Origin: Candidatus Aminicenantia bacterium
Lineage (GTDB): Bacteria; Acidobacteriota; Aminicenantia; UBA2199
DNA: 64,000 bases
Direction of reading: 5' to 3'
NCBI GenBank assembly: GCA_965225955.1
Contig: CBDDBX010000027.1
Span: forward strand, 9,057-73,056
The notes under the pieces are model-generated. The model was not told the origin of the DNA and made no database searches. It saw only the letters and a list, made by a program, of their open reading frames with translations. A program made the position numbers and the translations under genes. Positions 465 through 64,000 of the stretch are shown piece after piece. Numbering within the stretch: the first letter of the stretch is position 1; each line of letters begins with the position of its first letter.

Positions 465-1832
465 ATGAAAAGTATAGAGTATCTTAATAGTAGAAAAAGT
501 GAGTCAATGGAGGAGCTTAAAGAGTTGCTCCGTATTCCAAGTATAAGTGCTCAGTCAAAATATAAGAGAGATATGTCTGTCTGTGCAGAGTGGGTGGAAA
601 CTTTTCTGAAGAGGAGAGGTTTTGAAACCAGAATAATTGAAACACCAGGTTATCCTGCTGTTTATGCAGAGATGATGGTTTCAGATGACCTGCCTACAGT
701 CCTGGTTTACGGCCACTACGATGTTCAGCCGGTTGATCCTGTTGAGGATTGGTTTACAGACCCTTTTAATCCAATAGAGAAAGATGGGTACCTTATTGCC
801 CGGGGGGCCAGCGATGATAAAGGGCAGTTCTTTACCCATATGAAAAGCTGTGAAGCTCTGATAGAGGCTGAAGGTGGTCTTCCTCTGAATGTTAAGTTTC
901 TTATCGAAGGTGAGGAAGAGGCTGCCGAGAATCATCTTGATGAGCTTATTGAAGAACATAAGGAGTTGTTAAAGGCAGATGTGGCTCTTGTTTCAGATAG
1001 TGCTCAGTATGGAATTGACCTGCCTGCAATAACTTATGCCTTAAGAGGCATTACTGCTATGGAAATTACTGTTACAGGCCCTGATAAAGATCTCCATTCC
1101 GGTGCTTTTGGTGGAGCTGTTCCCAATCCTGTTAATACTCTCTGCTCAATTATCGGGAAACTACAGGATGAGAAGGGCAGAATTACTGTTCCTGGTTTCT
1201 ATGATAGTGTAAGAGATCAGACTGAATGGGAGAGAGATCAGGCTGCAGCACTTCCTTTTAATCATGATGAGTTTCTTGAGTATACAGGTTGCAAAAGTCT
1301 TCATGGAGAAGAGGGGTTTACTACAACAGAGAGAAAGAGTGCAAGACCTACTCTGGACTGCAACGGTATATTCGGAGGTTATCAGGGTGAAGGTCTGAAG
1401 ACTATTGTTCCTTCCACAGCTACAGCAAAACTCTCTATGCGCCTTGTTGCAGATATGGATCCTGCTGATACATATAAGAAGGTGGAAAAATACATTCTGG
1501 AGCTTTGTCCCGACTATGTAGATGTTAAGATAACAGATCTTGGTGGTGCATATCCTGTTCAGGTTCCTGTAGAAAGTGACTGGCTTAAAGCAGCAGGTGA
1601 GGCTGTAAAGGAAGGGTTTGGTAAGAAGCCTCTCTTTACAAAAGATGGTGGTTCAATACCTGTAGTTGGTACTTTCAGTAAAGTACTGGGTATTGATACA
1701 CTGCTTATTGGCTGGGGTCAGGAAGATGACAATATCCACTCTCCAAATGAGAGATTCAGAATAGAAGACTTTCACAGAGGTTGCACTACTTCAGCTATGA
1801 TTCTTAAGAGACTTTCAGAAGTTAAAAAATGA
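465..1832 (+). CDS. M20 family metallopeptidase (ArgE/DapE/ACY1/CPG2-type dipeptidase).
   Basis: 455 aa. M20 signatures are present: the HYDVQP metal-binding region, GASDDKG, and an EGEEE acidic catalytic stretch. RBS-like purine run upstream. Confidence 0.85.
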   Translation: MKSIEYLNSRKSESMEELKELLRIPSISAQSKYKRDMSVCAEWVETFLKRRGFETRIIETPGYPAVYAEMMVSDDLPTVLVYGHYDVQPVDPVEDWFTDPFNPIEKDGYLIARGASDDKGQFFTHMKSCEALIEAEGGLPLNVKFLIEGEEEAAENHLDELIEEHKELLKADVALVSDSAQYGIDLPAITYALRGITAMEITVTGPDKDLHSGAFGGAVPNPVNTLCSIIGKLQDEKGRITVPGFYDSVRDQTEWERDQAAALPFNHDEFLEYTGCKSLHGEEGFTTTERKSARPTLDCNGIFGGYQGEGLKTIVPSTATAKLSMRLVADMDPADTYKKVEKYILELCPDYVDVKITDLGGAYPVQVPVESDWLKAAGEAVKEGFGKKPLFTKDGGSIPVVGTFSKVLGIDTLLIGWGQEDDNIHSPNERFRIEDFHRGCTTSAMILKRLSEVKK

Positions 1833-2758
1833 TAATAAGCGCAAGCCGGCGGACAGATCTGCCGGCTTTCTATGGGGACTGGCTGCTCAATAGATTAAAG
1901 GAAGGTGTAGTTGATAGAGTTAACCCTGTGAACCCCCTTCAGGTAAGCCGTCTCCTTTTTACTCCTCAAACCATCGATTCAATAGTTTTCTGGACGAAGA
2001 ACCCTTCAGCTTTTCTGGTTAATCTGGATGAGGTGTTGAAGATGGGATACAGAGGGATGTTTCTTTTTACTCTCAACTCTTATACTCAGGAAGTTGAGCC
2101 AGGTATCGGAGATCTGAATTCAAGAATTGAAGCTTTCAAAGCAGTCTCAAAGATAGTCGGGAAAAGAGCTGTTGCCTGGAGATATGATCCTGTAATTCTC
2201 AGTACCAGTTTTACATCTGAATGGCATTTTGAGCAGATTGAGAAGATCTATAATAAACTTTCCGGTTATACAAACCGCCTGATTCTGAGTTTCTACGACT
2301 ACTACTCAGCACCACAGAAAAGGATGGCAGGAATTGATTCTCTAGATATGAGTGGTTGCTGTGACCATCTTAAGAGTCAGTTTATGAAGAGATTATCTGA
2401 TATGTTCAGAGAGGAAGAGATTGAGATCTCACTTTGTGCCCAGAAGGAAGACTACTCAGATTGTGGAATATACAACAGAGGCTGTATAGAAGGGAGAGAT
2501 ATAGCAGATCTCTTTGGGCTTAACATTAAGGCGGAGAGAGATAAAGGGCAGAGAGGAAGTTGCCTCTGTACCCGGTCTTTTGATATCGGAGCATACGAAA
2601 CCTGCAGATATAACTGCATCTACTGCTATGCAGATAAGAGGCGAAACAGAAATAAGCCTCATAAATACCACCATAATCCCGCCTCAATATCACTAATCCC
2701 TTACCCCCGAAACGCAAAAATCACAGTAAAAGATTTGACCTCCGGGTTATTCTGTTAA
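1829..2758 (+). CDS. DUF1848 family protein with a C-terminal CX3CX2C cysteine cluster.
   Basis: N-terminal SASRRTDLPAFYGDW is the DUF1848 hallmark as I recall it. C-terminal CRYNCIYCYADKR. ATGA start/stop overlap with the upstream M20 peptidase, so the two are translationally coupled. Confidence 0.6.
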   Translation: MIISASRRTDLPAFYGDWLLNRLKEGVVDRVNPVNPLQVSRLLFTPQTIDSIVFWTKNPSAFLVNLDEVLKMGYRGMFLFTLNSYTQEVEPGIGDLNSRIEAFKAVSKIVGKRAVAWRYDPVILSTSFTSEWHFEQIEKIYNKLSGYTNRLILSFYDYYSAPQKRMAGIDSLDMSGCCDHLKSQFMKRLSDMFREEEIEISLCAQKEDYSDCGIYNRGCIEGRDIADLFGLNIKAERDKGQRGSCLCTRSFDIGAYETCRYNCIYCYADKRRNRNKPHKYHHNPASISLIPYPRNAKITVKDLTSGLFC

Positions 2759-2759
2759 A

Positions 2760-3286
2760 AAATCACACAGATATTAACCCAATTGCAGGGATTTAATGTT
2801 GCATTGGTCAGGTATGCCACGCCCTTGCTACCTTTCATTCAGGCGTGCTGGGTAATAAACAGTTAAAAAATTGGTTTGACCTGTTAAACGGGCGCATACT
2901 CCGTTATGGTAGAACCATAACTCCGATGCGCCCCTACAAATCTCTCCTGTATATCAAATTTTGCAGGCCACGGCATAACTCTTATAACAAATTTTGACAT
3001 TAATCACTTGAAAATTAACCGCCAACACACGCCAATAAAAACAAATGCACACGAATAAATACACCGGTTGCAACCACACCTGACCCAATGATAAGAGACA
3101 CGGTTTGTAGGGGCGTATCGACGAGATTGCTATTGCAATCAAGGAGTATGCGCCCGTTTATCAGGCCACGGTATAATCTGAAAATTGTACAACGTGTTTC
3201 TTATTGTCAGATGAGGACTTCTGTTTGCCTTATTGTTAAGGCGTGTGGGTGAGGGGCGATCTAAGGTAGATCGCCGGTTTTATGGA
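2760..3286. repeat. REP/BIME-like modular repeat cluster A. Modules: 'ggcatgcca(c/a)gcccttgctacc', 'ggtttgacctgttaaacgggcgcatactccg..cgatgcgcccctacaaa' (forward at 2873..2940, inverted at 3104..3160), and a 'ctgtatatcaaattttgcagg' tail.
   Basis: The same modules recur at 4786.., 5771.., 6768.., 7065.., 9046.., 9255.. and 63820... Imperfect palindromes with an adjacent CTAC/GTAG. Confidence 0.8.
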
Positions 3287-4648
3287 TTATTTTGCCTGGT
3301 TCAGCAGGTTGCGATAGGTTTCTATCATTTCTGCTGTTGAAGTTGCAGCTTTTCTTTTCTTTGAATCTACAGATATATTTTCGTATTTGGATATAAGGTT
3401 CTGCATTGGCAGGTTAAGTTCTGCTGCTCCGGTTTTTATTCTGTCTTCAAGTATTGGAAGAGCAGCAAAACCAAGTGCTTCAATTTGTCTGCTTTTTTCA
3501 TCAGGTGATTCTGAAGAGTAGAGTATTGCATCTACTTTTTCAGGTAGTCTGGTTAAAAATCTATCCCAGCTGAACACCCAGCCTGATCCTGTTTCCCATT
3601 TTCCTGATACTGCTTTAAGATCTACAGCGGCAATTTTTTCAGCAGCTATTGCAAGAATATAATCTATCAGGCCATTCTCTTTAGTAGATTTGATTCTGTT
3701 CTTTATGGTTTCGAGAGCTTTGGGGCCCATTGCTACAATCTTTCTGAAACCATCATTATTGATATAGTCGTAAGGATTAGATGAATTCACATATCTGTTA
3801 ATATTAAATTCAAGTTCAGCAACGTGGTTCATTAGATCTCTGTCAGTTTCTGTATATGCTTTACGAAGTTCAGGGTCGCCACTCTCAACACTTAAGAAGT
3901 CAGAAGCATATTTACCGTTACTGTCGGTTACTGAAACCTCCAGCTCAAGACCGGAGTTTGAGGGCATCTGTGCTGAAGTGGAACTCTCTGTTCCTCCATC
4001 TATTGTGTCTTCGTATCTATTTGAGATCATCCAGCTGTATGTGTATGGCGGAACTCCGTTTTTGACTCTTACACTCCAGATCTGAGTAGTGTTTGGAGCT
4101 GCTCTGTTTGGGCCACGGATTTCAGCTGTCATACTCTTATAGTAGACTTTGACTTTTGCCCCGTAACCGGCTCTCTGCTGAGTGTATGGGTAGTTATACA
4201 ACTTGTGAGTGTAGTAGGTATTGTATGGGTCCCATGAATTGTGCTGCAGAAGGTTCAGGCCGCCGCATTTAGCCTGGCAGGCAGAAGAGCTTATCACTTT
4301 ACTGAAATGCCCAATGCTGTTTGTTGTTCCATAAGATATGATTTTTGCATAATGCCCATATGTTCTGTAACCTTTACTACTCATATAGGTGTTAACCTGA
4401 TTACTTGTAGGATTACTGCTTCCCCATGGCCATACCCACTGGTTTGTAATGCCAATAGAGTATGCAAGGCAGTTATAAGTGCCTGTACAGGGCCCAAGAT
4501 ATGACCAGGTGGTGCAGAAACTGTTGTAAAATTCCGTTGGGGTACCGTTATAGTCTGAAGGCTTGCATAACTGCTGCCCATAAGTATTGCCTGTTAAAAA
4601 CAGAAAAGTTATTAACAGAAAAATGGTAGCTGAAAATTTTTTAGACAT
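3287..4648 (-). CDS. Secreted multidomain protein of unknown function (signal peptide; Cys/His-containing N-terminal domain; PKD/Ig-like 'GVPPYTYSW' motif; helical C-terminal domain).
   Basis: 453 aa. N-terminus MSKKFSATIFLLITFLFLTGNTYG is a typical Sec signal. The YNCLAYSIG ... GHYAKI / IGHFSKVI spacing resembles papain-like/CHAP-type Cys-His hydrolases (weak). The gene sits between two REP clusters. Confidence 0.5.
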   Translation of the reverse strand: MSKKFSATIFLLITFLFLTGNTYGQQLCKPSDYNGTPTEFYNSFCTTWSYLGPCTGTYNCLAYSIGITNQWVWPWGSSNPTSNQVNTYMSSKGYRTYGHYAKIISYGTTNSIGHFSKVISSSACQAKCGGLNLLQHNSWDPYNTYYTHKLYNYPYTQQRAGYGAKVKVYYKSMTAEIRGPNRAAPNTTQIWSVRVKNGVPPYTYSWMISNRYEDTIDGGTESSTSAQMPSNSGLELEVSVTDSNGKYASDFLSVESGDPELRKAYTETDRDLMNHVAELEFNINRYVNSSNPYDYINNDGFRKIVAMGPKALETIKNRIKSTKENGLIDYILAIAAEKIAAVDLKAVSGKWETGSGWVFSWDRFLTRLPEKVDAILYSSESPDEKSRQIEALGFAALPILEDRIKTGAAELNLPMQNLISKYENISVDSKKRKAATSTAEMIETYRNLLNQAK

Positions 4649-4979
4649 TTGTCCTCCTTTCCCGCATGTTTTGAAAAACTAATAATCTCACAGCAGGATT
4701 TTGCTAAATATTTACCATTAAAACCATTGTATAAGATCCAGAAGAATTGTTCAAAGAATATGAAGATCAATAACTTTGCAGGTGCCAGGCATGCCAAGCC
4801 CTTGCTACCTTTTATTCAGGCGTGCAGGGGAGTGAGAGTCAATCTTGCAGATTCGGAGGATGCCGATTTTATCATAATAATGCATGGGTCAGGCATGCCT
4901 GACACCCTACACAATCATTGTATTACAAGACTTTACAGACCTGTTAAATAATAAGACACACCCAGGAATTTATCATTTT
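4649..4979. repeat. REP/BIME-like cluster B, including a P1 REP copy (gggtcaggcatgcctgacaccctacac at 4886..4912).
   Basis: Contains a 16-nt perfect palindrome gtcaggcatgcctgac plus a flanking CTAC. Shares the 'ggcatgccaagcccttgctaccttttattcaggcgtgcagggg' module with clusters A, C and D. Confidence 0.8.
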
Positions 4980-5498
4980 TTATAATAGTGGTGAATTCAT
5001 CTGATCTGTATCCCAATTTTTAGGATTATTGATTATGTATTCCCGGATAATATTTAATTCCCGGTCATTCCTTATGACTCTTTCCCAATAGTTACGCTGC
5101 CAAATTTTTGTTTTATCCCCTGAATTCATTTCATTTATTTTTCTGGTAACAGTTGATTTGAAAGACCCTATAATTGTAGATAATGATTGTTTAGTGGGTA
5201 ATATGCGAGAATGTAGGGGCTTGCCATGGCACGCCCCTGGAGATACTGTCATACAGATTATGCCGTGTACGTGATTTGGCATTACTATAAATTTATCGAG
5301 GGAGATATTTGAAAAATGGTTGGGGATTTCATTCCAGATAGAAAAGGCGATTTTCCCATACTGGCTTAATGACATTCTGTTATTGATGATATTGCCAAAA
5401 TAATGTTTTTTCTCATGTGTACATATAGTTACATAGTATGCACCAGCAGATGAATAATCCCTCTGGGGTAATCTGATTGATTGTCTGTTATGTTGCAT
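4980..5498 (-). CDS. REP-associated tyrosine transposase (RAYT; IS200/IS605 TnpA-like Y1 HUH enzyme).
   Basis: 172 aa. HUH motif in 'MPNHVHGIICM'; catalytic Tyr context 'IWQRNYWERVIRND'; size and motif order typical of RAYT/TnpA_REP. Flanked on both sides by identical P1 REP palindromes (4886..4912 and 5662..5688). Confidence 0.8.
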   Translation of the reverse strand: MQHNRQSIRLPQRDYSSAGAYYVTICTHEKKHYFGNIINNRMSLSQYGKIAFSIWNEIPNHFSNISLDKFIVMPNHVHGIICMTVSPGACHGKPLHSRILPTKQSLSTIIGSFKSTVTRKINEMNSGDKTKIWQRNYWERVIRNDRELNIIREYIINNPKNWDTDQMNSPLL

Positions 5499-5938
5499 TG
5501 TATATTTTGTTAATATAAAAAATATATGTTATTTGGAGTGATTAATCAAGAAGAAAATTTAAGAATAAATGCAGAGATCTTTGCGTGTGATCTTGTTGTA
5601 ACACCATATTAGAGGATAACGAATGCAGTTCAAGGGGAAGTGTTGTGTTGTTATGTTGCATGGGTCAGGCATGCCTGACACCCTACACGTCATTGTATTA
5701 AAAGGCTGTACAGATCTGTTAAATAATAACTGTACGGCTGATTAAAGGATTGCTGAATTGTGGTTGGGTAGGGGCTTGGCATGCCACGCCCTTGCTACCT
5801 TTTATTCAGGCGTACGGGGGTAATATAAGCAGTTAAAAAATTGGTTTGACCTATTAAATGGGCGCATACTCCGTTTGATTGGTTACGGCAATACTGTTTT
5901 ATATATTAGGTTTGTTTTTCAGATACCATTTGTGAGGG
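5499..5938. repeat. REP/BIME-like cluster C, including a P1 REP copy (5662..5688) and R2/R3 modules (5771..5885).
   Basis: Direct sequence identity to modules in clusters A, B, D and E. Confidence 0.8.
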
Positions 5939-6412
5939 TTACTGTTTTTGTTTGAGAGCCAGAAGTTCTTCTACGTCAAGTTTATCTTTTGTTCTGTTAA
6001 CAAGCCTCTTAGCTTCTATCAGTTCATCCATTCCAAGGATTCTGATTTTAAGGTTATCTACTACATCTTCAACTATATTGTTAAAATATTGAGCTGTTTT
6101 TTCTGTAGAGATACTGGTTATTATATCGATTGCATTTGGCTCTGCTCCAAGGTGAATAGCAGCACCTTCTTTAGTAAAAACTTCCGGGTCAATTCCAGCA
6201 TTTCCAAACCCGAAATCCGTTAACGCAATCATGACTTTTTCTGCGTTTTCTCTATTGGGGTTTATAAGAATATCAAAGTCAAATGTTGCTCTCATGTAGC
6301 CATAATAACTGACTGCATATCCGCCACAGACGGCATAATCTACATTATATTCATTAAAGAGCTCTATCAGCTCCTTCATATCATTTGTCAGTTTCAGCAT
6401 TGTCAAAGTCAA
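5939..6412 (-). CDS. Nucleotidyltransferase-fold protein (Pol-beta superfamily; AbiEii/DUF1814-like 'GG..x..R.T.DFD' motif). Putative toxin/effector of a two-gene module.
   Basis: 157 aa. 'VCGGYAVSYYGYMRATFDFDILI' fits the hG[GS]-x(9-13)-DhD nucleotidyltransferase signature. Its start overlaps the stop of the upstream 62-aa ORF. Embedded between REP clusters. Confidence 0.5.
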   Translation of the reverse strand: MTLTMLKLTNDMKELIELFNEYNVDYAVCGGYAVSYYGYMRATFDFDILINPNRENAEKVMIALTDFGFGNAGIDPEVFTKEGAAIHLGAEPNAIDIITSISTEKTAQYFNNIVEDVVDNLKIRILGMDELIEAKRLVNRTKDKLDVEELLALKQKQ

Positions 6413-6569
6413 GTTTGCGGATTTTTACTATTTTTTCGATTGGTTTGTTCCATGTACCCATGCGTTTTGCTAATAGGAGCATACGTTCAGGACCGGTCAT
6501 CTTGAGAATCTCTTCACGGCGGATCTGATCCTGATCTTCCACTCTGGCGATTTTTACAACCTTTTCCAT
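6381..6569 (-). CDS. Small hypothetical protein (62 aa), operonic partner of the nucleotidyltransferase; candidate antitoxin or regulator.
   Basis: Overlaps the 5' end of the NTase ORF by ~30 nt (or abuts it if the NTase starts at Met12). Charged, helical composition. No recognisable family. Confidence 0.35.
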   Translation of the reverse strand: MEKVVKIARVEDQDQIRREEILKMTGPERMLLLAKRMGTWNKPIEKIVKIRKLDFDNAETDK

Positions 6570-7357
6570 GTGTTAAATATATAATGCAGGGGAGTAGGAG
6601 TCAATCTTGCAGATTCAGGAGATGTCGATTTTGTTTTATTTCCGCATGGGTCAGGCATGCCTGACACCCTACACAATCATCAGGCGGTGATTTGACAGAA
6701 ATTATTACTGTTATCTGAAAAGGACTGTAAAAATTAAAAATTGACGCGCAATATTAATAAATTGTAGGGGCCTGGCATGCCACGCCCTTGCTACCTTTTA
6801 TTCAGCCGTGCGGGGGTAATAAGCAGTTAAAAAATTGGTTTGACCTGTTAAACGGGCGCATACTCCGATACGCCCCTACAAACCGCTTCTCTTATTATCA
6901 ATCGGGGATTGTTTAATAATGTTTTGATTCTAATCTTTATGTTTATTCGCGTGTATTTGCGTCTTTTTTGGCGTCCATTCGCGGTTAATGCTGATTTTTA
7001 AACCGTTCGGGAATTCTGTTTGTCTTATTTTAAGGCGTGCGGGGAGATAAACATCTGATAAATTGGTTTGACCTGTTAAACGGGCGTATACTCCGTTATG
7101 GTGGAACCATAACTCCGATACGCCCCTACAAATCTCTCCTGTATATCAAATTTTGCAGGGCACGGCATAATCTGAAAATTGTACAATGTGTTTCTTATGA
7201 TTGGGTAGGGTGTGGTTGATTTATTCGTGTGTATTTGTTTTTATTGGCGTGTGTTGACGTTCGGGTATTTGTTTGGTGTTTATTTGTGTGCATTGGTGGT
7301 TCCTTCTGTGTTATGTTTCGGGTTTCTGGTATACTTTCGGATTATTATGGAGGAGTT
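6570..7357. repeat. REP/BIME-like cluster D: P1 copy at 6649..6675, an R3 short form at 6837..6880, an R3 long form at 7065..7133, and the module 'ttattcgcgtgtatttgcgtcttttttggcg...cggttaatgctgattt'.
   Basis: The modules repeat nearly verbatim at 9125..9235 and 9340..9440. The 5' leader of the C69 dipeptidase gene is built from these modules. Confidence 0.8.
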
Positions 7358-8941
7358 ATGTCAATTAAGAATTTTTTGATTGGAGGGCTTTTATCTGCCC
7401 TTGTTATGACACCTGTTTTTGGTGAGGATGATGCTTGTACTACTATTACAGTTGGTAAGAAGGCTTCAACTGATGGTTCTGTTATGACTTCACACACCTG
7501 TGATTCAAGAACCACAAGAACATGGATAGATATTGTGCCTGGAAAGAAGCATAAACCCGGTACAATGAGAAAGGTTTATGGTTCAACTGAGAGAACTGTC
7601 AGTGCAGACAACTTATCAGCAAGAAAGCTGAGAGGTGAGATTGCTCAGCAGGCAAGAACCTATAAGTATTTCAACTCTGCTCTGCCTTTTATGAATGAGA
7701 ATCAGGTTGGTATTGGTGAAGCTACTTTTGGTGGCAAAAAAGAGATGAAAAGTGATAACGGACTCATCGACTACAGGGAGCTTAACCGCCTTATGGCTGA
7801 GAGAGCTACTTCTGCAAGAGATGCTATCAGAGTTGCTGATGAGGTAACTAAGAAGTATGGTTATATCTCCGGTGGTGAGTGCTTCACTATTGCTGATACT
7901 AAAGAGGTGTGGCATCTTGAAATTGTTGGCCCTGGTAAGGGTAAAAAAGGTGCTGTATGGGTTGCTCAGAGAGTACCGGATGATCATGTTAGTGTAAATG
8001 CAAACGCTTCAAGAATCAGAGAAGTAAAGACTAATGATAAAGAGAACTTCATGTATTCAGAGAATGTCTTCTCAGCTGCTGAAGAGGCTGGTCTCTGGAG
8101 TAAATCAAGTGGTAAAACATTTGAGTTCTGTTATGTTTACGGTTCAAGAAGAAGTATGGCTTCAAGAAGAAGAGAGTGGAGGGTATTTGATCTCCTGGCT
8201 CCTGGTCTTAAACTAGATCCTAATGGAGAGAATTTTCCTTTTTCAGTAAAACCTGAAAAAAAGGTTGCCCCTTCAGATATTATGAGAATCTTCAGAGATA
8301 CTTATGAAGATACACCTTTTGATATGACCAAATATATGCTGGTTCAGGAGAAGGACGATAAAGGAAAACTTACAGGTAAGTTTGTAAAGAGTCCTTATGC
8401 TAACCCTTTTATGCACTACGATATGATGCCTCTCTTTAAAGTCAATGGTGGTTGGAATGAGATGGGGGAGAGATGTATTGCAAGATACTACTGTACTTAT
8501 GTTACCGTAATTCAGCTGAGAGACTGGCTCCCTAATGAGATCGGTGGTCTTACATGGTTTGGTCTTGATAATACAGCAACCACTTCATATGCTCCTCTCT
8601 ACGCAGGTATGACATCTGTTCCCCAGAGTTACAGAATCTGCGGTCGTCCCGGCTTTAACAGAGATAGTGCATGGTGGGCTTTTAACCGTGTTGCTGACCT
8701 TGCTGCTCAGAAATGGGGCTATATGAGAAAAGATTGTAAGAAGGTCTGGAGTGTTTATGAGAAAGAGGCCTTTGATAAACAGGCTGATATTGAAAAAGAG
8801 GCACTGCGTCTTCATAAAAAAAGTAAAAAGAAAGCATCTAAATACCTCAACAAGTACAGTAACGACTGGATGAACAAACTGGTTAAAGCGTACTGGAAAC
8901 TTGGAGATGATCTCTGGAGTAAATACACAGGAAAATTCTAA
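7358..8941 (+). CDS. Peptidase C69 family dipeptidase (secreted; Cys nucleophile right after the signal peptide).
   Basis: 'ACTTITVGKKASTDGSVMTSHTCD' matches the C69 N-terminal nucleophile region. Signal peptide MSIKNFLIGGLLSALVMTPVFG. GGAGGAG RBS 6 nt upstream of the ATG at 7358. The longer ORF-track start at 7229 reads through repeat sequence and is rejected. Confidence 0.8.
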   Translation: MSIKNFLIGGLLSALVMTPVFGEDDACTTITVGKKASTDGSVMTSHTCDSRTTRTWIDIVPGKKHKPGTMRKVYGSTERTVSADNLSARKLRGEIAQQARTYKYFNSALPFMNENQVGIGEATFGGKKEMKSDNGLIDYRELNRLMAERATSARDAIRVADEVTKKYGYISGGECFTIADTKEVWHLEIVGPGKGKKGAVWVAQRVPDDHVSVNANASRIREVKTNDKENFMYSENVFSAAEEAGLWSKSSGKTFEFCYVYGSRRSMASRRREWRVFDLLAPGLKLDPNGENFPFSVKPEKKVAPSDIMRIFRDTYEDTPFDMTKYMLVQEKDDKGKLTGKFVKSPYANPFMHYDMMPLFKVNGGWNEMGERCIARYYCTYVTVIQLRDWLPNEIGGLTWFGLDNTATTSYAPLYAGMTSVPQSYRICGRPGFNRDSAWWAFNRVADLAAQKWGYMRKDCKKVWSVYEKEAFDKQADIEKEALRLHKKSKKKASKYLNKYSNDWMNKLVKAYWKLGDDLWSKYTGKF

Positions 8942-9433
8942 ACAGGCATTCTGCCATTAAATATCATGGGTCAGGCATGCTTCAGCAAGCTCAGGACTGG
9001 TTGCCTGACCCCTTACATACGTTACCGTATTATGAAATCTTTCAGACCTATTAAACGGGCGCATACTCCGTTACGGTAAAACCATAACTCCGATACGCCC
9101 CTACAAACCGTGTTTCTTATTATCAATATGTTTATTCGCGTGTATTTGCGTCTTTTTTGGCGCCTATTCGCGGTTAATGCTGATTTTTAAACCGTTCGGG
9201 AATTCTGTTTGTCTTATTTTAAGGCGTGCAGGGGGATAAACATCTGATAAATTGGTGTGGCCTGTTAAACGGGCGTATACTCCGTTACGGTAAAACCATA
9301 ACTCCGATACGCCCCTACAAACCGTGTTTCTTATTATCAATTGGGATTGTTTAATAATGTTTTGATTCTAATCTTTATGTTTATTCGCGTGTATTTGCGT
9401 CTTTTTTGGCGTTTATTCGCGGTTAATGCTGAT
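8942..9433. repeat. REP/BIME-like cluster E: an interrupted P1 copy (8968..9017 with a ~23-nt insertion), two R3 long forms (9046..9104 and 9255..9319), and duplicated 'ttattcgcgtgtatttgcg...' modules.
   Basis: Direct sequence identity to clusters A-D. The cluster abuts the stop codon of the downstream minus-strand MATE gene. Confidence 0.8.
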
Positions 9434-10837
9434 TTAAACCGTGCGGGTTTTCCATTTGCCTTTTCTGAAGAGGTAGAGTCCTGTTATTGCCATTACTCCT
9501 TCAGCAATGATTATTGCCAGATAGACCCCTTTTGCATCCAGAGTAGAGTGGAGTGCAAGGTATATCGCCAGAGGGATTTCAAGAGCCCAGAAGCAGAATA
9601 TGTTTATAATAGTTGGAGTCATTGTATCTCCTGCTCCGTTAAAGGACTGTACCATAACCATTCCTATTCCGTAGAAGATGAATCCGTAACTTATAAATCT
9701 CAGAGCCGTTGCACCATGCTCTATAAGCAGAGGATCTGCAACCTGATTTATGTTGATGAGTTTTATGAAAACTTCAGGTATTGTAGCGAATACAATTCCC
9801 AGAATCCCCAGAATAGCAACATTGGTCATACTGGCAATCCATACAGCTCTTTCAGCTCTGTCAGATCTTTTTGCACCAAGGTTCTGACCTACAAGGGTAG
9901 CCGCTGCATTACTCAGTCCAAGAGACGGAAGAAGTGCAAAGATGATAACTCTTATGGCAATAATGTATCCTGAAGCTACCTTTGCTCCGAAGTTGTTAAC
10001 TATCTTCATGAGAATGATCCAGCTGGAAGTAACAATAATTGATTGCCCTATTCCACCTATAGATAGTTTGAATATTCTCTTCATTATGGATAAGTCGGGA
10101 ATAAAACTCTTAATATCTACTTTTACAACCCCTTTGCCCCCAAACAGAAGGTAGAACTGGTATATAACAGCAACACCACGACCTATATTTGTGGCAACTG
10201 CTGCTCCGGTAACACCCATTTCAGGAAAAGGGCCTAAACCGAAAATAAGACAGGGGTCCAGAATAATATTCAGAAGGTTTGCGAGCCACAGTACCCTCAT
10301 GGACCTTGCAGCATCACCGGAACTTCTGAAAACAGCATTAATTACAAAAAGAAGAAGAATTACACCATTTCCTGTAAGCATAACCTTTGCATAGTTACTG
10401 CCAATGGCTATAGATTCTGCAGGAGCATCCATAAGATGCAGCAGATCTGTAGAGAAGAAGAAGCCAATTGCTGCAATAACTGCAGATACAGCAATTGCAG
10501 CTACAATAGCCTGTCCTGTTACCTTTGATGCCAGTTCAGGTCTCTTTTCACCAATTCTCCTTGCAACCATGGCGGTTGTTGCTGCACTAAGGCCCACGCC
10601 AATTGAGTATACAATTGTTATAAGGGATTCGGTTGTACCAACAGCTGTAATTGCGGAGTCTCCCAGTTTTGAAACAAAGGCTATATCCACAACTGCAAAT
10701 ATTGATTCCATAACCATTTCCAGAATCATTGGAATGGAGAGGAGAAGAATTGAGCGTCCCAGAGGAAGAGAGGTGTAGTCTCTCTGAACGCCTCGAATTG
10801 AGTCAATAATATCTTTTAGTAGTCTTCTGTAGTTCAT
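9434..10837 (-). CDS. MATE family efflux transporter.
   Basis: 467 aa, ~12 predicted TM segments. N-terminal 'LLLSIPMILEMVMESIFAVVDIAFVSKLG' is typical of the MATE/NorM family. Confidence 0.8.
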   Translation of the reverse strand: MNYRRLLKDIIDSIRGVQRDYTSLPLGRSILLLSIPMILEMVMESIFAVVDIAFVSKLGDSAITAVGTTESLITIVYSIGVGLSAATTAMVARRIGEKRPELASKVTGQAIVAAIAVSAVIAAIGFFFSTDLLHLMDAPAESIAIGSNYAKVMLTGNGVILLLFVINAVFRSSGDAARSMRVLWLANLLNIILDPCLIFGLGPFPEMGVTGAAVATNIGRGVAVIYQFYLLFGGKGVVKVDIKSFIPDLSIMKRIFKLSIGGIGQSIIVTSSWIILMKIVNNFGAKVASGYIIAIRVIIFALLPSLGLSNAAATLVGQNLGAKRSDRAERAVWIASMTNVAILGILGIVFATIPEVFIKLININQVADPLLIEHGATALRFISYGFIFYGIGMVMVQSFNGAGDTMTPTIINIFCFWALEIPLAIYLALHSTLDAKGVYLAIIIAEGVMAITGLYLFRKGKWKTRTV

Positions 10838-56329: not shown

Positions 56330-56457
56330 TAAAAGATTAAATTTTATATAAAGAAAGTTAATGACTCAAAAAGTAGTGGTGGTCAGTGATGCAGGGAAAA
56401 GGTTGAATTTTCGTATGCTAAAAACCAGAAAATTCAGTATAAATTCTGCGCAGAATA

Positions 56458-56486
56458 TTGACACACCACCACATCTTTGATAGAAT
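56458..56486 (+). promoter_or_regulatory. Sigma70-type promoter candidate for the tRNA-Ser gene.
   Basis: TTGACA (56458..56463), a 17-nt spacer, TAGAAT (56481..56486); about 13 nt upstream of the tRNA 5' end. Confidence 0.45.
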
Positions 56487-56499
56487 TACTTTCGTTGAC

Positions 56500-56589
56500 G
56501 GAGAGTTGGCAGAGCGGTTGAATGCGGCGGTCTTGAAAACCGTTGAGCCTTTGCGGGTTCCCGGGGTTCGAATCCCTGACTCTCCGCCA
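56500..56589 (+). tRNA. tRNA-Ser (anticodon UGA), class II with long variable arm, CCA encoded.
   Basis: Hand-folded: 7-bp acceptor stem GGAGAGT/ACTCTCC, a D arm, anticodon stem GCGGT/ACCGT with loop CUUGAAA (UGA at positions 34-36), a ~19-nt variable arm, T arm CGGGG-TTCGAAT-CCCTG, discriminator G, CCA. Confidence 0.9.
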
Positions 56590-57129
56590 TACATCCCTTT
56601 CAAAATCACAAACTTCTCAAATCAAAGAAAATTCCATATTGAATAGATGCGTCTCAGGGATGAGAATCCCGGAGGGGTTTGATTAAATCAGCTTGCTGAT
56701 TAAAGAAACCTGAGCTTGCGAAGGTTCCCGAAGGGTGAGCGTAGCGAATCAATCTCTGACTCTCCGCCATTTCTTTCTTTTTTAAAATTACAAAATTCAC
56801 AACTTAATAATAATTTTTCATCCTTCTTTATTTCGGGATTCGAACATTTATGTAGTGATAAGCTGCGTTCCTCGCTTATTCCCATCTGCGACATTACTCA
56901 TCCTTCACTTCGTTACGTCCTTCGTTCGCAGACCCTGACTCTCCGCCATACATCCCTTTCAAAATCACAAACTTCTCAAATCAAAGAAAATTTCATATTG
57001 AATAGATGCGTCTCAGGGATGAGAATCCCGGAGGGGTTTGATTAAATCAGCTTGCTGATTAAAGAAACCTGAGCTTGCGAAGGTTCCCGAAGGGTGAGCG
57101 TAGCGAATCAATCCCTGACTCTCCGCCTC
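56590..57129 (+). repeat. Tandem array of three ~180-bp units directly abutting the tRNA-Ser 3' end. Units U1a (56590..56769), U2 (56770..56948) and U1b (56949..57127) each end in a 14-16-nt copy of the tRNA 3' end ('ccctgactctccgcca'). U1a and U1b are near-identical; U2 is unrelated internally.
   Basis: Direct sequence comparison. U1 also carries a degenerate ~40-nt copy of the tRNA 3' half ('ggttcccgaagggtgagcgtagcgaatcaatctctgactctccgcca'). Confidence 0.8.
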
Positions 57130-57167
57130 TCCGCAGAAGCAGTGAGCCTGCGAACTCCTGTAAGGAA

Positions 57168-57190
57168 TAAAAGCAAAGGACTTTGCTTTT
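57168..57190 (+). terminator. Terminator-like hairpin downstream of the tRNA-linked array.
   Basis: 'aaagcaaaggactttgcttt' followed by 'tatataat'. Confidence 0.35.
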
Positions 57191-57441
57191 ATATAATCCC
57201 GCATAATGTTTAATGCTTTCGCTTCGCTACAGATATTAAAATCGGGATTGCGGAGATGGGAGCAAGCTCCAGCTTGTCACTTTATACGATTTTAAATTTT
57301 TAAGTCTTATTGGACTTTCTAATACCACCCCACCTGGAGTACCAGGCACCCCTCCTTAAAAGAAGGGGAGTTCTGTTTGTCTTGCAAAGAGCTACCTTTG
57401 GATGAATTCGCCTTCTGGTTCAAATATGTTACGATAAGCAT

Positions 57442-57708
57442 ATGTGGTATTTATATATTCTCAGATGTTCAGACGATTCCCTCTATACAGGTATAACAAC
57501 TGATGTAGAGAAACGGATTAAAGCTCACAGAGGTGAAATTCCCGGAGGGGCTAAGTATCTGAGAGGAAGAGCCCCTTTCGAACTTGTATTCCAGGTAGAA
57601 GCCGGCACAAAGAGTGATGCTTCCAAACTTGAACTACGTGTAAAAAAATTAACAAGAAGAGGCAAAGAGGCTCTTCTGGAAGACGCCTCTTTAATAGAAA
57701 AACTCTGA
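57442..57708 (+). CDS. GIY-YIG nuclease family small protein (UPF0213/YhbQ-like).
   Basis: 'LYILRCSDDSLYTGITTDVEKRIKAH' GIY-YIG motif; 88 aa. Confidence 0.7.
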   Translation: MWYLYILRCSDDSLYTGITTDVEKRIKAHRGEIPGGAKYLRGRAPFELVFQVEAGTKSDASKLELRVKKLTRRGKEALLEDASLIEKL

Positions 57709-57717
57709 ATATTCAGG

Positions 57718-63689: not shown

Positions 63690-64000
63690 TGGTTGAGGGC
63701 GGATACAATACTTTCCCTATGATAGGGCAAAGTAAGATCCGCCCCTACGGGTGATTTGAGTATTAATATGTGCGTTTAGGTTTTACAAGTATGTTGGGGG
63801 AGTGAGCGGATGGTGGGTTGGTTTGGCCTGTTAAACGGGAGCATACTCCGTTATGGTAAAACCATAACTCCGATGCTCCCCTACAAATCGTGTCTCTTAT
63901 CATAATATCGGTGTTGTTTTTTGTGCTGTTATTCGCAAGCTCACTACTCCTGCGGAGACCCCTGCAAATCGTGTTTCTTATCATGATGTTGGTGTTATTA
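63690..64000. repeat. REP/BIME-like cluster F at the window end. Palindrome 'gggcggat...atccgcccctac' (63694..63748), R3 long form (63820..63880), and a duplicated 'ccctacaaatcgtgt(c/t)tcttatcat' tail.
   Basis: Same module family as 2760..9433. The R3 copy carries compensatory changes (gggagcat / atgctccc) that preserve the stem. Confidence 0.75.

Follow-up and report, generated by a model that had tools for sequence, protein, structure and literature searches.

Why should five consecutive intergenic gaps in the genome of an uncultured bacterium be occupied by structured palindromes, with a single gene or gene pair between each gap and the next? The question is raised by nucleotides 2760-9433 of a 64,000-nt stretch of DNA (the window, meaning the whole of the sequence analysed here) that covers positions 9,057 to 73,056 of contig CBDDBX010000027.1, assembly GCA_965225955.1, from a Candidatus Aminicenantia bacterium. 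The region contains repeats resembling repetitive extragenic palindromic (REP) sequences, in five clusters that we call A to E, together with a gene for a REP-associated tyrosine transposase (RAYT, or TnpA_REP). An earlier note on this DNA, made from the sequence alone, had described an integron-like island of gene cassettes and an accessory-gene hotspot. We conclude that the region is very probably a REPtron: a single-copy, domesticated transposase gene of the histidine-hydrophobic-histidine (HUH), single-tyrosine (Y1) type, subclass 2.4, with its cognate REPs arranged as doublets like REPINs (REP doublets forming hairpins) and as tandem units like bacterial interspersed mosaic elements (BIMEs), and with the genes between them mostly resident.

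What kind of enzyme is encoded here? The gene and the palindrome that it contains are as follows.

4980-5498, minus strand: RAYT/TnpA_REP (Y1_Tnp), 172 aa, assigned from Pfam and motifs.
5213-5239, plus strand: REP-like palindrome GTAGGGGCTTGCCATGGCACGCCCCTG within the RAYT gene, in frame between the HUH and tyrosine motifs, encoding ..PGACHGKPLH..

The protein has some 1,760 homologues; among the 120 listed, several bear the name 'REP element-mobilizing transposase RayT'. In an alignment of 12 sequences, comprising the window protein and 11 homologues of 44-58% identity, the motifs N75-H76-V-H78, W133-Q134 and Y154-I-I-N-N158-P159 are invariant or nearly so. TnpA_REP subclass 2.4 is defined by the signature NH[IFV]H, WQ and YIxNNP, its tyrosine motif being of the class 2 form Y...NP (Quentin et al. 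2018, PMC6006769), and corresponds to RAYT group 4 (Bertels et al. 2017, PMC5581495); the HUH, WQ and tyrosine motifs all fit. With its HUH and tyrosine motifs intact, this protein is supported as the enzyme associated with the REPs, as the earlier note had it, and the accompanying claim that RAYT is the only recombinase, with no integrase, also stands for the open reading frames (ORFs) from 1 to 13 kb, in which no other integrase or recombinase domain was found. The gene is present once in the 64 kb, its codon usage is atypical, and no solved structure matched the protein by sequence.

The internal palindrome, which carries a GTAGGGGC head, fixes this classification, since an in-frame REP inside the gene is a 'unique feature of subclass 2.4' (PMC6006769); for the same reason we rejected the idea that it is a new observation. 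A counterpart is present in all seven of the relative RAYT genes examined, six of them by palindrome scan and one (L035) by reading and alignment. In one relative, L036, the internal REP is identical at 29 of 29 positions to an external copy just upstream of the gene. In L035, the closest RAYT homologue (59%), the internal REP (L035 700-730) is identical at 26 of 26 positions to an external repeat of the window (5768-5793, of the M2 type described below), and a palindrome-preserving GCATGC -> CCATGG change distinguishes the window's internal REP from the L035 copy. Judged from L035 and the window, conservation of the REP greatly exceeds that of the protein in whose gene it lies.

Do the repeats outside the gene belong to the same class? 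Three palindromes, P1, M2 and R3, recur in the region, and in all three a GTAGGG head lies directly 5' of a G/C-rich stem, the tetranucleotide GT[AG]G standing 5' of an imperfect hairpin and 0-2 nt from its foot; the REP/BIME-type identity proposed in the earlier note is thus supported. P1, read as its reverse complement from the minus strand, aligns with M2 on the plus strand, so that the two are opposite-orientation variants of one family, REP-1. M2 also tends towards a 'double foot' (GTAG...CTAC). The RAYT gene has copies of P1 and M2 within 300 nt on either side. R3 is a long nested hairpin and constitutes a second GTAG-headed REP family. Across its five full copies every one of the 75 pair cells is paired, compensatory changes are present at two stem pairs, and the only one-sided stem changes are G-T wobbles, all of them on the GTAG strand. 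Rfam gives no match between 2700 and 9500, even at E <= 1.

The R3 hairpin is itself part of a composite unit of ~214-250 nt, in which R3, a 'gtgtttcttat' tail and a 'ttattcgcg...cggttaatgctgattt' linker follow one another, with an optional 55-nt insert ('ctgtatatcaaattttgcagg...'). These units form direct tandems with a period of 214-249 nt that align end to end, including conserved linkers of ~130-190 nt; they stand head to tail in clusters D and E, are inverted in A and have decayed in C. Tandem Repeats Finder misses units of 214-249 nt because of indels. Every module quoted in the earlier note is multi-copy, where shuffled sequence gives an expectation of 0 matches, and copy numbers in the region are three exact plus one variant for P1, four for M2, seven for R3, and three exact plus two diverged for the 'ttattcgcg' linker. 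Of the five reusable module types that had been listed, each thus exists and is reused. They are not independent, however, since P1 and M2 form one family and R3, tail and linker one composite unit, and inverted module copies occur in cluster A only.

The contents of the clusters are as follows, the strand in each case being that of the GTAG head.

2759-3286: cluster A, where the DUF1848 and DUF7689 genes converge; degenerate M2 (plus), R3 (minus), R3 (plus).
2799-2835, plus: degenerate M2 of cluster A.
2877-2942, minus: R3 of cluster A.
3020-3101: inverted linker of cluster A.
3103-3168, plus: inverted R3 of cluster A.
3202-3239: weak segment of cluster A resembling the MATE-derived tag (see below).
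3255-3275: terminator-like hairpin of cluster A.
4649-4979: cluster B; M2 (plus) and P1 (minus), an inverted REP-1 doublet, REPIN-like.
4778-4808, plus: M2 of cluster B.
4880-4912, minus: P1 of cluster B.
5499-5938: cluster C; P1 (minus), M2 (plus), decayed R3 (minus).
5655-5690, minus: P1 of cluster C, with an extension to 5729.
5768-5800, plus: M2 of cluster C.
5847-5873, minus: decayed R3 of cluster C, left arm only.
6570-7357: cluster D, the largest, in a divergent promoter region; P1 (minus), M2 (plus), short R3 (minus), R3 (minus).
6585-6680: module of cluster D that includes P1 at 6641-6676 (minus).
6764-6796, plus: M2 of cluster D.
6841-6884, minus: short R3 of cluster D, without the inner hairpin.
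6905-7036: linker of cluster D, including the MATE-derived tag at 6997-7034.
7069-7134, minus: full R3 of cluster D.
7135-7198: 55-nt insert and tail of cluster D.
7199-7290: diverged linker of cluster D.
8942-9435: cluster E, where the C69 and MATE genes converge; P1 variant (minus), R3 (minus), R3 (minus).
8958-9012, minus: P1 variant of cluster E, with an expanded loop.
9044-9109 and 9258-9323, both minus: the two tandem R3 copies of cluster E.
9110-9257 and 9324-9435: linkers of cluster E.
63697-64000: second R3-type cluster, 54 kb away and running off the end of the window.
63697-63748, minus: variant REP of the second cluster, with a different inner hairpin.
63827-63887, minus: R3 of the second cluster, its stem changes compensated.
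~63945-63985: partial third copy in the second cluster.

P1 on the minus strand and M2 on the plus strand alternate in clusters B, C and D. Inverted doublets of both families fold as expected of REPINs, the R3 doublet of cluster A (2865-3180) at -59.7 kcal/mol (z=-7.3) and the M2/P1 doublet of cluster B at -25.8 kcal/mol (z=-2.8). At least 15 hairpins are present at two loci in the 64 kb, all of them extragenic apart from the copy inside the RAYT gene. The second of these loci, at 63697-64000, is at odds with the idea that the repeats are confined to the island; the outer stem of its R3 at 63827-63887 carries a double compensatory change (GGGAGCAT/ATGCTCCC), and the cluster shows that the R3 family is dispersed and apparently under structural constraint.

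Two further features of the modules were seen. The motif AGGCGTG(C/T)(A/G)GGG recurs at module junctions (2840, 3237, 4817, 5807, 6803, 6585 (partial), 7032 and 9221), after which the sequence goes on as R3 leader or P1 leader; the motif might mark a site of recombination or cleavage. In addition, the 40-nt extension of P1 is the start of the R3 left arm, both copies being cut at the same point ('cctgttaaa|taataa').

Could so repetitive a structure be an artefact, produced when a metagenome contig was mis-joined at shared repeats? The contig, of 88.6 kb, comes from an uncultured lineage, the collections hold no close relatives, and the island's two longest stretches of exact repeat (70 and 64 nt) do link clusters D and E, which also have in common a 212-nt segment that is 92% identical. 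Exact repeats of only this length make mis-joining unlikely, since metagenome assemblers usually go up to larger k-mers than this, and the copies that flank the exact stretches differ (86-92% identity), so that the paths through them are resolvable. All units are at window GC and most at window codon usage, and cluster E is tied in register to its neighbouring gene by the tag discussed below. We regard an assembly error as exceedingly improbable.

The genes of the region and its borders, identified by Pfam search of the window ORFs, are listed below, RAYT having been given above.

465-1832, plus strand: M20 peptidase (Pfam).
1829-2758, plus strand: DUF1848 protein (Pfam).
3287-4648, minus strand: secreted protein, 453 aa; signal peptide, DUF7689 domain, weak PKD-like match (Pfam).
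5939-6412, minus strand: minimal nucleotidyltransferase (NTase)-fold protein, DUF6036/NTP_transf_5-like, sub-threshold.
6381-6569, minus strand: ORF of 62 aa, upstream of the NTase gene and overlapping it.
7358-8941, plus strand: C69 family dipeptidase, 527 aa (Pfam).
9434-10837, minus strand: MATE (MatE) protein (Pfam).
9433-9470, minus strand: last 12 codons and stop of the MATE gene.

The layout agrees with the earlier description in its boundaries, the DUF1848 stop at 2758 and the MATE stop at 9434, and in its five repeat clusters alternating with one gene or gene pair each. The gaps A to E measure 528, 331, 440, 788 and 492 nt, where gaps in the rest of the window have a median of 76 nt. 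To call roughly half of the stretch repeat DNA was an overstatement: intergenic DNA totals 2,579 nt (39% of 2760-9433), and self-similar sequence 1,594 of 6,674 nt (24%). The gene identities hold for the secreted DUF7689/PKD-like protein, Y1_Tnp/RAYT, C69, MatE and DUF1848, while the NTase assignment is weak (NTP_transf_5 at E=1.2e-4, below the cut-off; DUF6036 at E=0.02). Neither the NTase pair nor the DUF7689 protein has a PADLOC or NCBIfam match.

How the arrays came to lie between these genes is indicated by a piece of the MATE gene itself. Decayed copies of its 3' segment are found inside repeat units at 6997-7034 and 9186-9223 (29 of 38 positions identical, in register), and similarity from the last repeat unit runs 35 nt into the MATE coding sequence, again in register (26 of 35 identical). 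We considered whether the C-terminus of the MATE protein had been made by repeat insertion, and rejected this: the tail LFRKGKWKTRTV (C-terminus FRKGKWKTRTV) fits the family consensus FRxGxWKxxxV, in which W462 is invariant, and the protein ends where 17 of 18 homologues end. It follows that the gene has kept its native end and that the decayed copies are those at 9186-9223 and 6997-7034. The presence of such copies within the units implies that the unit arose at the MATE junction, underwent tandem duplication and later reached cluster D by copying across C69. The tag thus shows arrays that would have grown by local segmental copying beside resident genes.

An alternative is that a pre-existing REP array served as a landing pad, a recombination hotspot into which the NTase pair and possibly C69 were inserted with no RAYT-mediated transfer. 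The 64-70-nt exact repeats and the 212-nt repeat on both sides of C69 would suffice as recombination substrates, the NTase pair lies between a decayed R3 and a truncated module, and REPs are known targets for insertion sequences (IS), for example ISPpu9. The composite units at the C69 borders (D2 and E1) are each complete, however, and none is split, which argues against insertion of C69 into an array. C69 also has the most host-like codon usage in the island, and we saw neither target duplications nor ends of mobile elements beside any of the units. Insertion into a ready-made array seems to us unlikely.

Were the genes themselves moved, as the cassette idea requires? In its full form that idea holds that single genes travelled as REP-delimited units, in an integron-like manner, with RAYT recombining REP hairpins through single-stranded DNA. 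Every gene unit is indeed bracketed by clusters, and the P1 hairpins of clusters B, C, D and E all point the same way. Y1 HUH enzymes of the IS608 type can in principle move DNA between same-strand hairpins, and an enzyme of this IS200/IS605 kind might do so here. We know of no RAYT, however, that has been reported to move genes. Codon usage gives a further test. On a score of synonymous-codon fit to the rest of the window, where the 40 genes outside the island average 0.161 +/- 0.038, C69 reaches 0.227, the NTase 0.126 and the DUF7689 protein 0.121, against -0.006 for RAYT and -0.053 for the 62-aa ORF. Only the last two are atypical, C69 being among the best host-adapted genes of the window, and GC is flat across the region. 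Nor does any one module keep a fixed place with respect to each gene: the modules at the boundaries vary between units, and the units between the clusters are in mixed orientations (-,-,-,+).

The resemblance to integron cassette arrays is accordingly superficial, lying only in the alternation of structured, imperfect palindromes with single genes. No intI tyrosine recombinase was found in the ORFs from 1 to 13 kb, and there is no attI or Pc and no attC-like regularity; the genes here lie on both strands with upstream room, have native composition and lack a uniform 3' attC. In the MATE tag, moreover, it is repeats that have been copied around resident genes, and not genes that have entered arrays. 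The claim of an integron-like island or accessory hotspot is thus not supported, and we think it distinctly unlikely that the genes moved as cassettes; the DUF7689 protein, C69 and MATE are, by these signs, most probably resident chromosomal genes.

The NTase pair is the sole unit with an accessory flavour, because distant homologues (28-37%) are plasmid-borne in cyanobacteria, Acidobacteria and Bacteroidetes, some of them annotated as DUF6036 nucleotidyltransferase. The pair adjoins the decayed R3 on one side and the truncated module on the other, which favours the cassette idea in this one case, as the native codon usage and GC of the NTase do not; the pair may be an independently acquired accessory module. 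Two other points on the same side are that the synteny is not common to the nearest relatives and that some related RAYTs are found among toxin-antitoxin, integrase and retroelement genes. The first carries little weight. The nearest M20 homologues (58-60% identical; FCB group, Zixibacteria) have the order M20-SDR-EamA-M29, with no DUF1848 or MATE, and at such identity a different synteny is uninformative.

A bolder version would make same-strand REP hairpins the left and right ends of segments of kilobase size that RAYT excises and reinserts, an HUH-driven counterpart of the integron. The MATE tag already shows that at least 200 nt of non-REP flank has been co-copied between intergenic regions. 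We regard such an activity as very improbable indeed. IS200/IS605 elements encode an enzyme of the same HUH/Y1 fold, and same-strand P1-plus-extension hairpins flank the RAYT gene in a manner reminiscent of the left and right ends (LE/RE) of such elements. The differences are that the tyrosine motif is Y...NP and not Y...Q, that the gene is single-copy in 64 kb, that there is no tnpB, and that the hairpins come from a dispersed REP family.

Returning to the REPtron, we infer the following activity and order of events. RAYT would bind the hairpin with its 5' GTAG foot on single-stranded DNA, cleave it and rejoin it, and would in this way seed new REP and REPIN copies, preferentially nearby. Local growth and spread of the arrays would follow, as stretches of at least 200 nt, flanking DNA included, underwent non-reciprocal copying or unequal recombination.

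Do the repeats also serve the genes beside them? The earlier note had the promoters and 5' leaders of the C69 gene and the NTase pair built from repeat modules. Repeat sequence does extend to within 16 nt of the ATG of the small ORF and ~70 nt of that of C69, and this part stands. Sigma-70-like sites are not enriched, however (21 found, 18.9 +/- 4.2 expected), so that support for the claim is weak. The three top sites score 10/12, and the one on the minus strand, which would serve the small ORF and NTase pair, has its -35 TTGACT (6604-6599) inside a repeat module and its -10 TATATT (6581-6576) in unique DNA. The repeats of cluster D may plausibly affect expression.

Several observations weigh against a REPtron of the familiar kind. 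The nearest pair of repeats flanking RAYT (P1 plus 40-nt extension, 4867-4954 and 5643-5729; 85-90% identical) are direct repeats, and inverted pairs around the gene appear only if the M2 copies are counted. The R3 units follow one another in direct tandem, without the alternation of classical BIMEs. REPs usually avoid divergent promoter regions (PMC3733652), which makes cluster D an unusual REP site. At six related loci of subclass 2.4 the external REPs within ~7 kb number only 0-1 and the gaps around RAYT are short, and for group 4 RAYTs in general the flanking 16-mers are reported to be only modestly abundant. The density seen here thus departs from what is typical of the subclass and, with at least 15 hairpins, five consecutive gaps and a second, nested-hairpin family, stands at the high end.

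How widely are these repeats distributed? At least 120 metagenome stretches from other organisms contain the M2 core; 80 of these loci were fetched, of which two carry a RAYT and none carries other window genes, R3 or linkers. A 30-nt R3 pattern gave 0 matches in the metagenome collection, and a scan of genome contigs with the R3 core gave 34 single matches in unrelated taxa, which we read as chance. The core REP type is therefore widespread, and the composite modules appear, from these scans, to be lineage-specific. In the collections searched, no relative came closer than 54-60% in protein identity: six window proteins were found in a collection of ~15 billion proteins, all as singletons at 90% identity, the nearest DUF1848 homologue is 54% identical and lies on a 1.5-kb contig, and L035 is a 1.3-kb contig on which RAYT has unrelated neighbours. 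As a separate observation, related subclass 2.4 RAYTs (L163 3077-6953; L167 1-5050) stand beside toxin-antitoxin pairs (ParE, DUF433/PIN, Polbeta-NTase/HEPN, AbiEii), with a retron/diversity-generating retroelement-like bAvd-RT pair and integrases or resolvases also among the neighbours of such genes; others are wedged between housekeeping genes (miaB-RAYT-miaA).

How does the locus compare with REPtrons already described? Those of subclass 2.4 (PMC6006769) have the same motifs (NHVH, WQ and YIINNP), the in-frame REP between HUH and tyrosine motifs, long REPs with at least three G-C pairs at the stem foot, and a non-proteobacterial host. The locus described here differs in its far denser REPs, extending over five consecutive gaps, in its second family, R3, with linkers, and in the length of its RAYT (172 aa, compared with a subclass median of 194). 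RAYT genes are always REP-flanked and one third directly adjoin BIMEs, E. coli yafM having BIME-2 on both sides (Nunvar et al. 2010, PMC2817692). The yafM REPtron resembles ours in its REP clusters on both sides, its GTAG head and its opposite-orientation variants (Y and Z2 there, P1 and M2 here). Its enzyme, in contrast, belongs to subclass 2.2 (DHLH, YIHYNP), its clusters are found only in the two immediate flanks, and its repeats alternate, whereas the R3 units are in direct tandem.

In P. fluorescens SBW25, the ordered clusters of REPINs consist of tandem repeats 'including the flanking sequences', with notable examples adjoining each RAYT (Bertels & Rainey 2011, PMC3116915). Both systems have inverted doublets that fold as long hairpins, tandem units with flank, and clusters beside RAYT. 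The RAYT in SBW25 is of another group, however, and in the present region the flank includes the 3' end of a neighbouring gene and copies occupy several adjacent gaps. A REPtron with BIME- or REPIN-like clusters is thus an arrangement already described, and it is the expansion over five consecutive gaps that is unusual.

Elsewhere in the window, the 3' end of tRNA-Ser(tga), 'ccctgactctccgcc', occurs four times between 56500 and 57130 (at 56574, 56754, 56933 and 57113), and two 195-nt units there, 56574-56768 and 56933-57127, are 99% identical. These look like att-type duplications or remnants of tRNA-integrated elements. Downstream is a small ORF (57400-57708) in which a GIY-YIG-like motif (..GIY.., YTG.T.D) appears to be present by eye; it sits in a 1.4-kb stretch (56330-57717) without an ORF of at least 150 aa.

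Finally, what does the locus contribute? It adds a well-resolved REPtron of subclass 2.4 (group 4) from a deep, uncultured lineage, in a group usually tied to modestly abundant repeats. Its dense arrays over several gaps, with the MATE tag as a built-in marker of the direction of spread, may be of interest for REP and REPIN dynamics. Were it true that gene units move with the repeats, this would be a new route of gene mobility.

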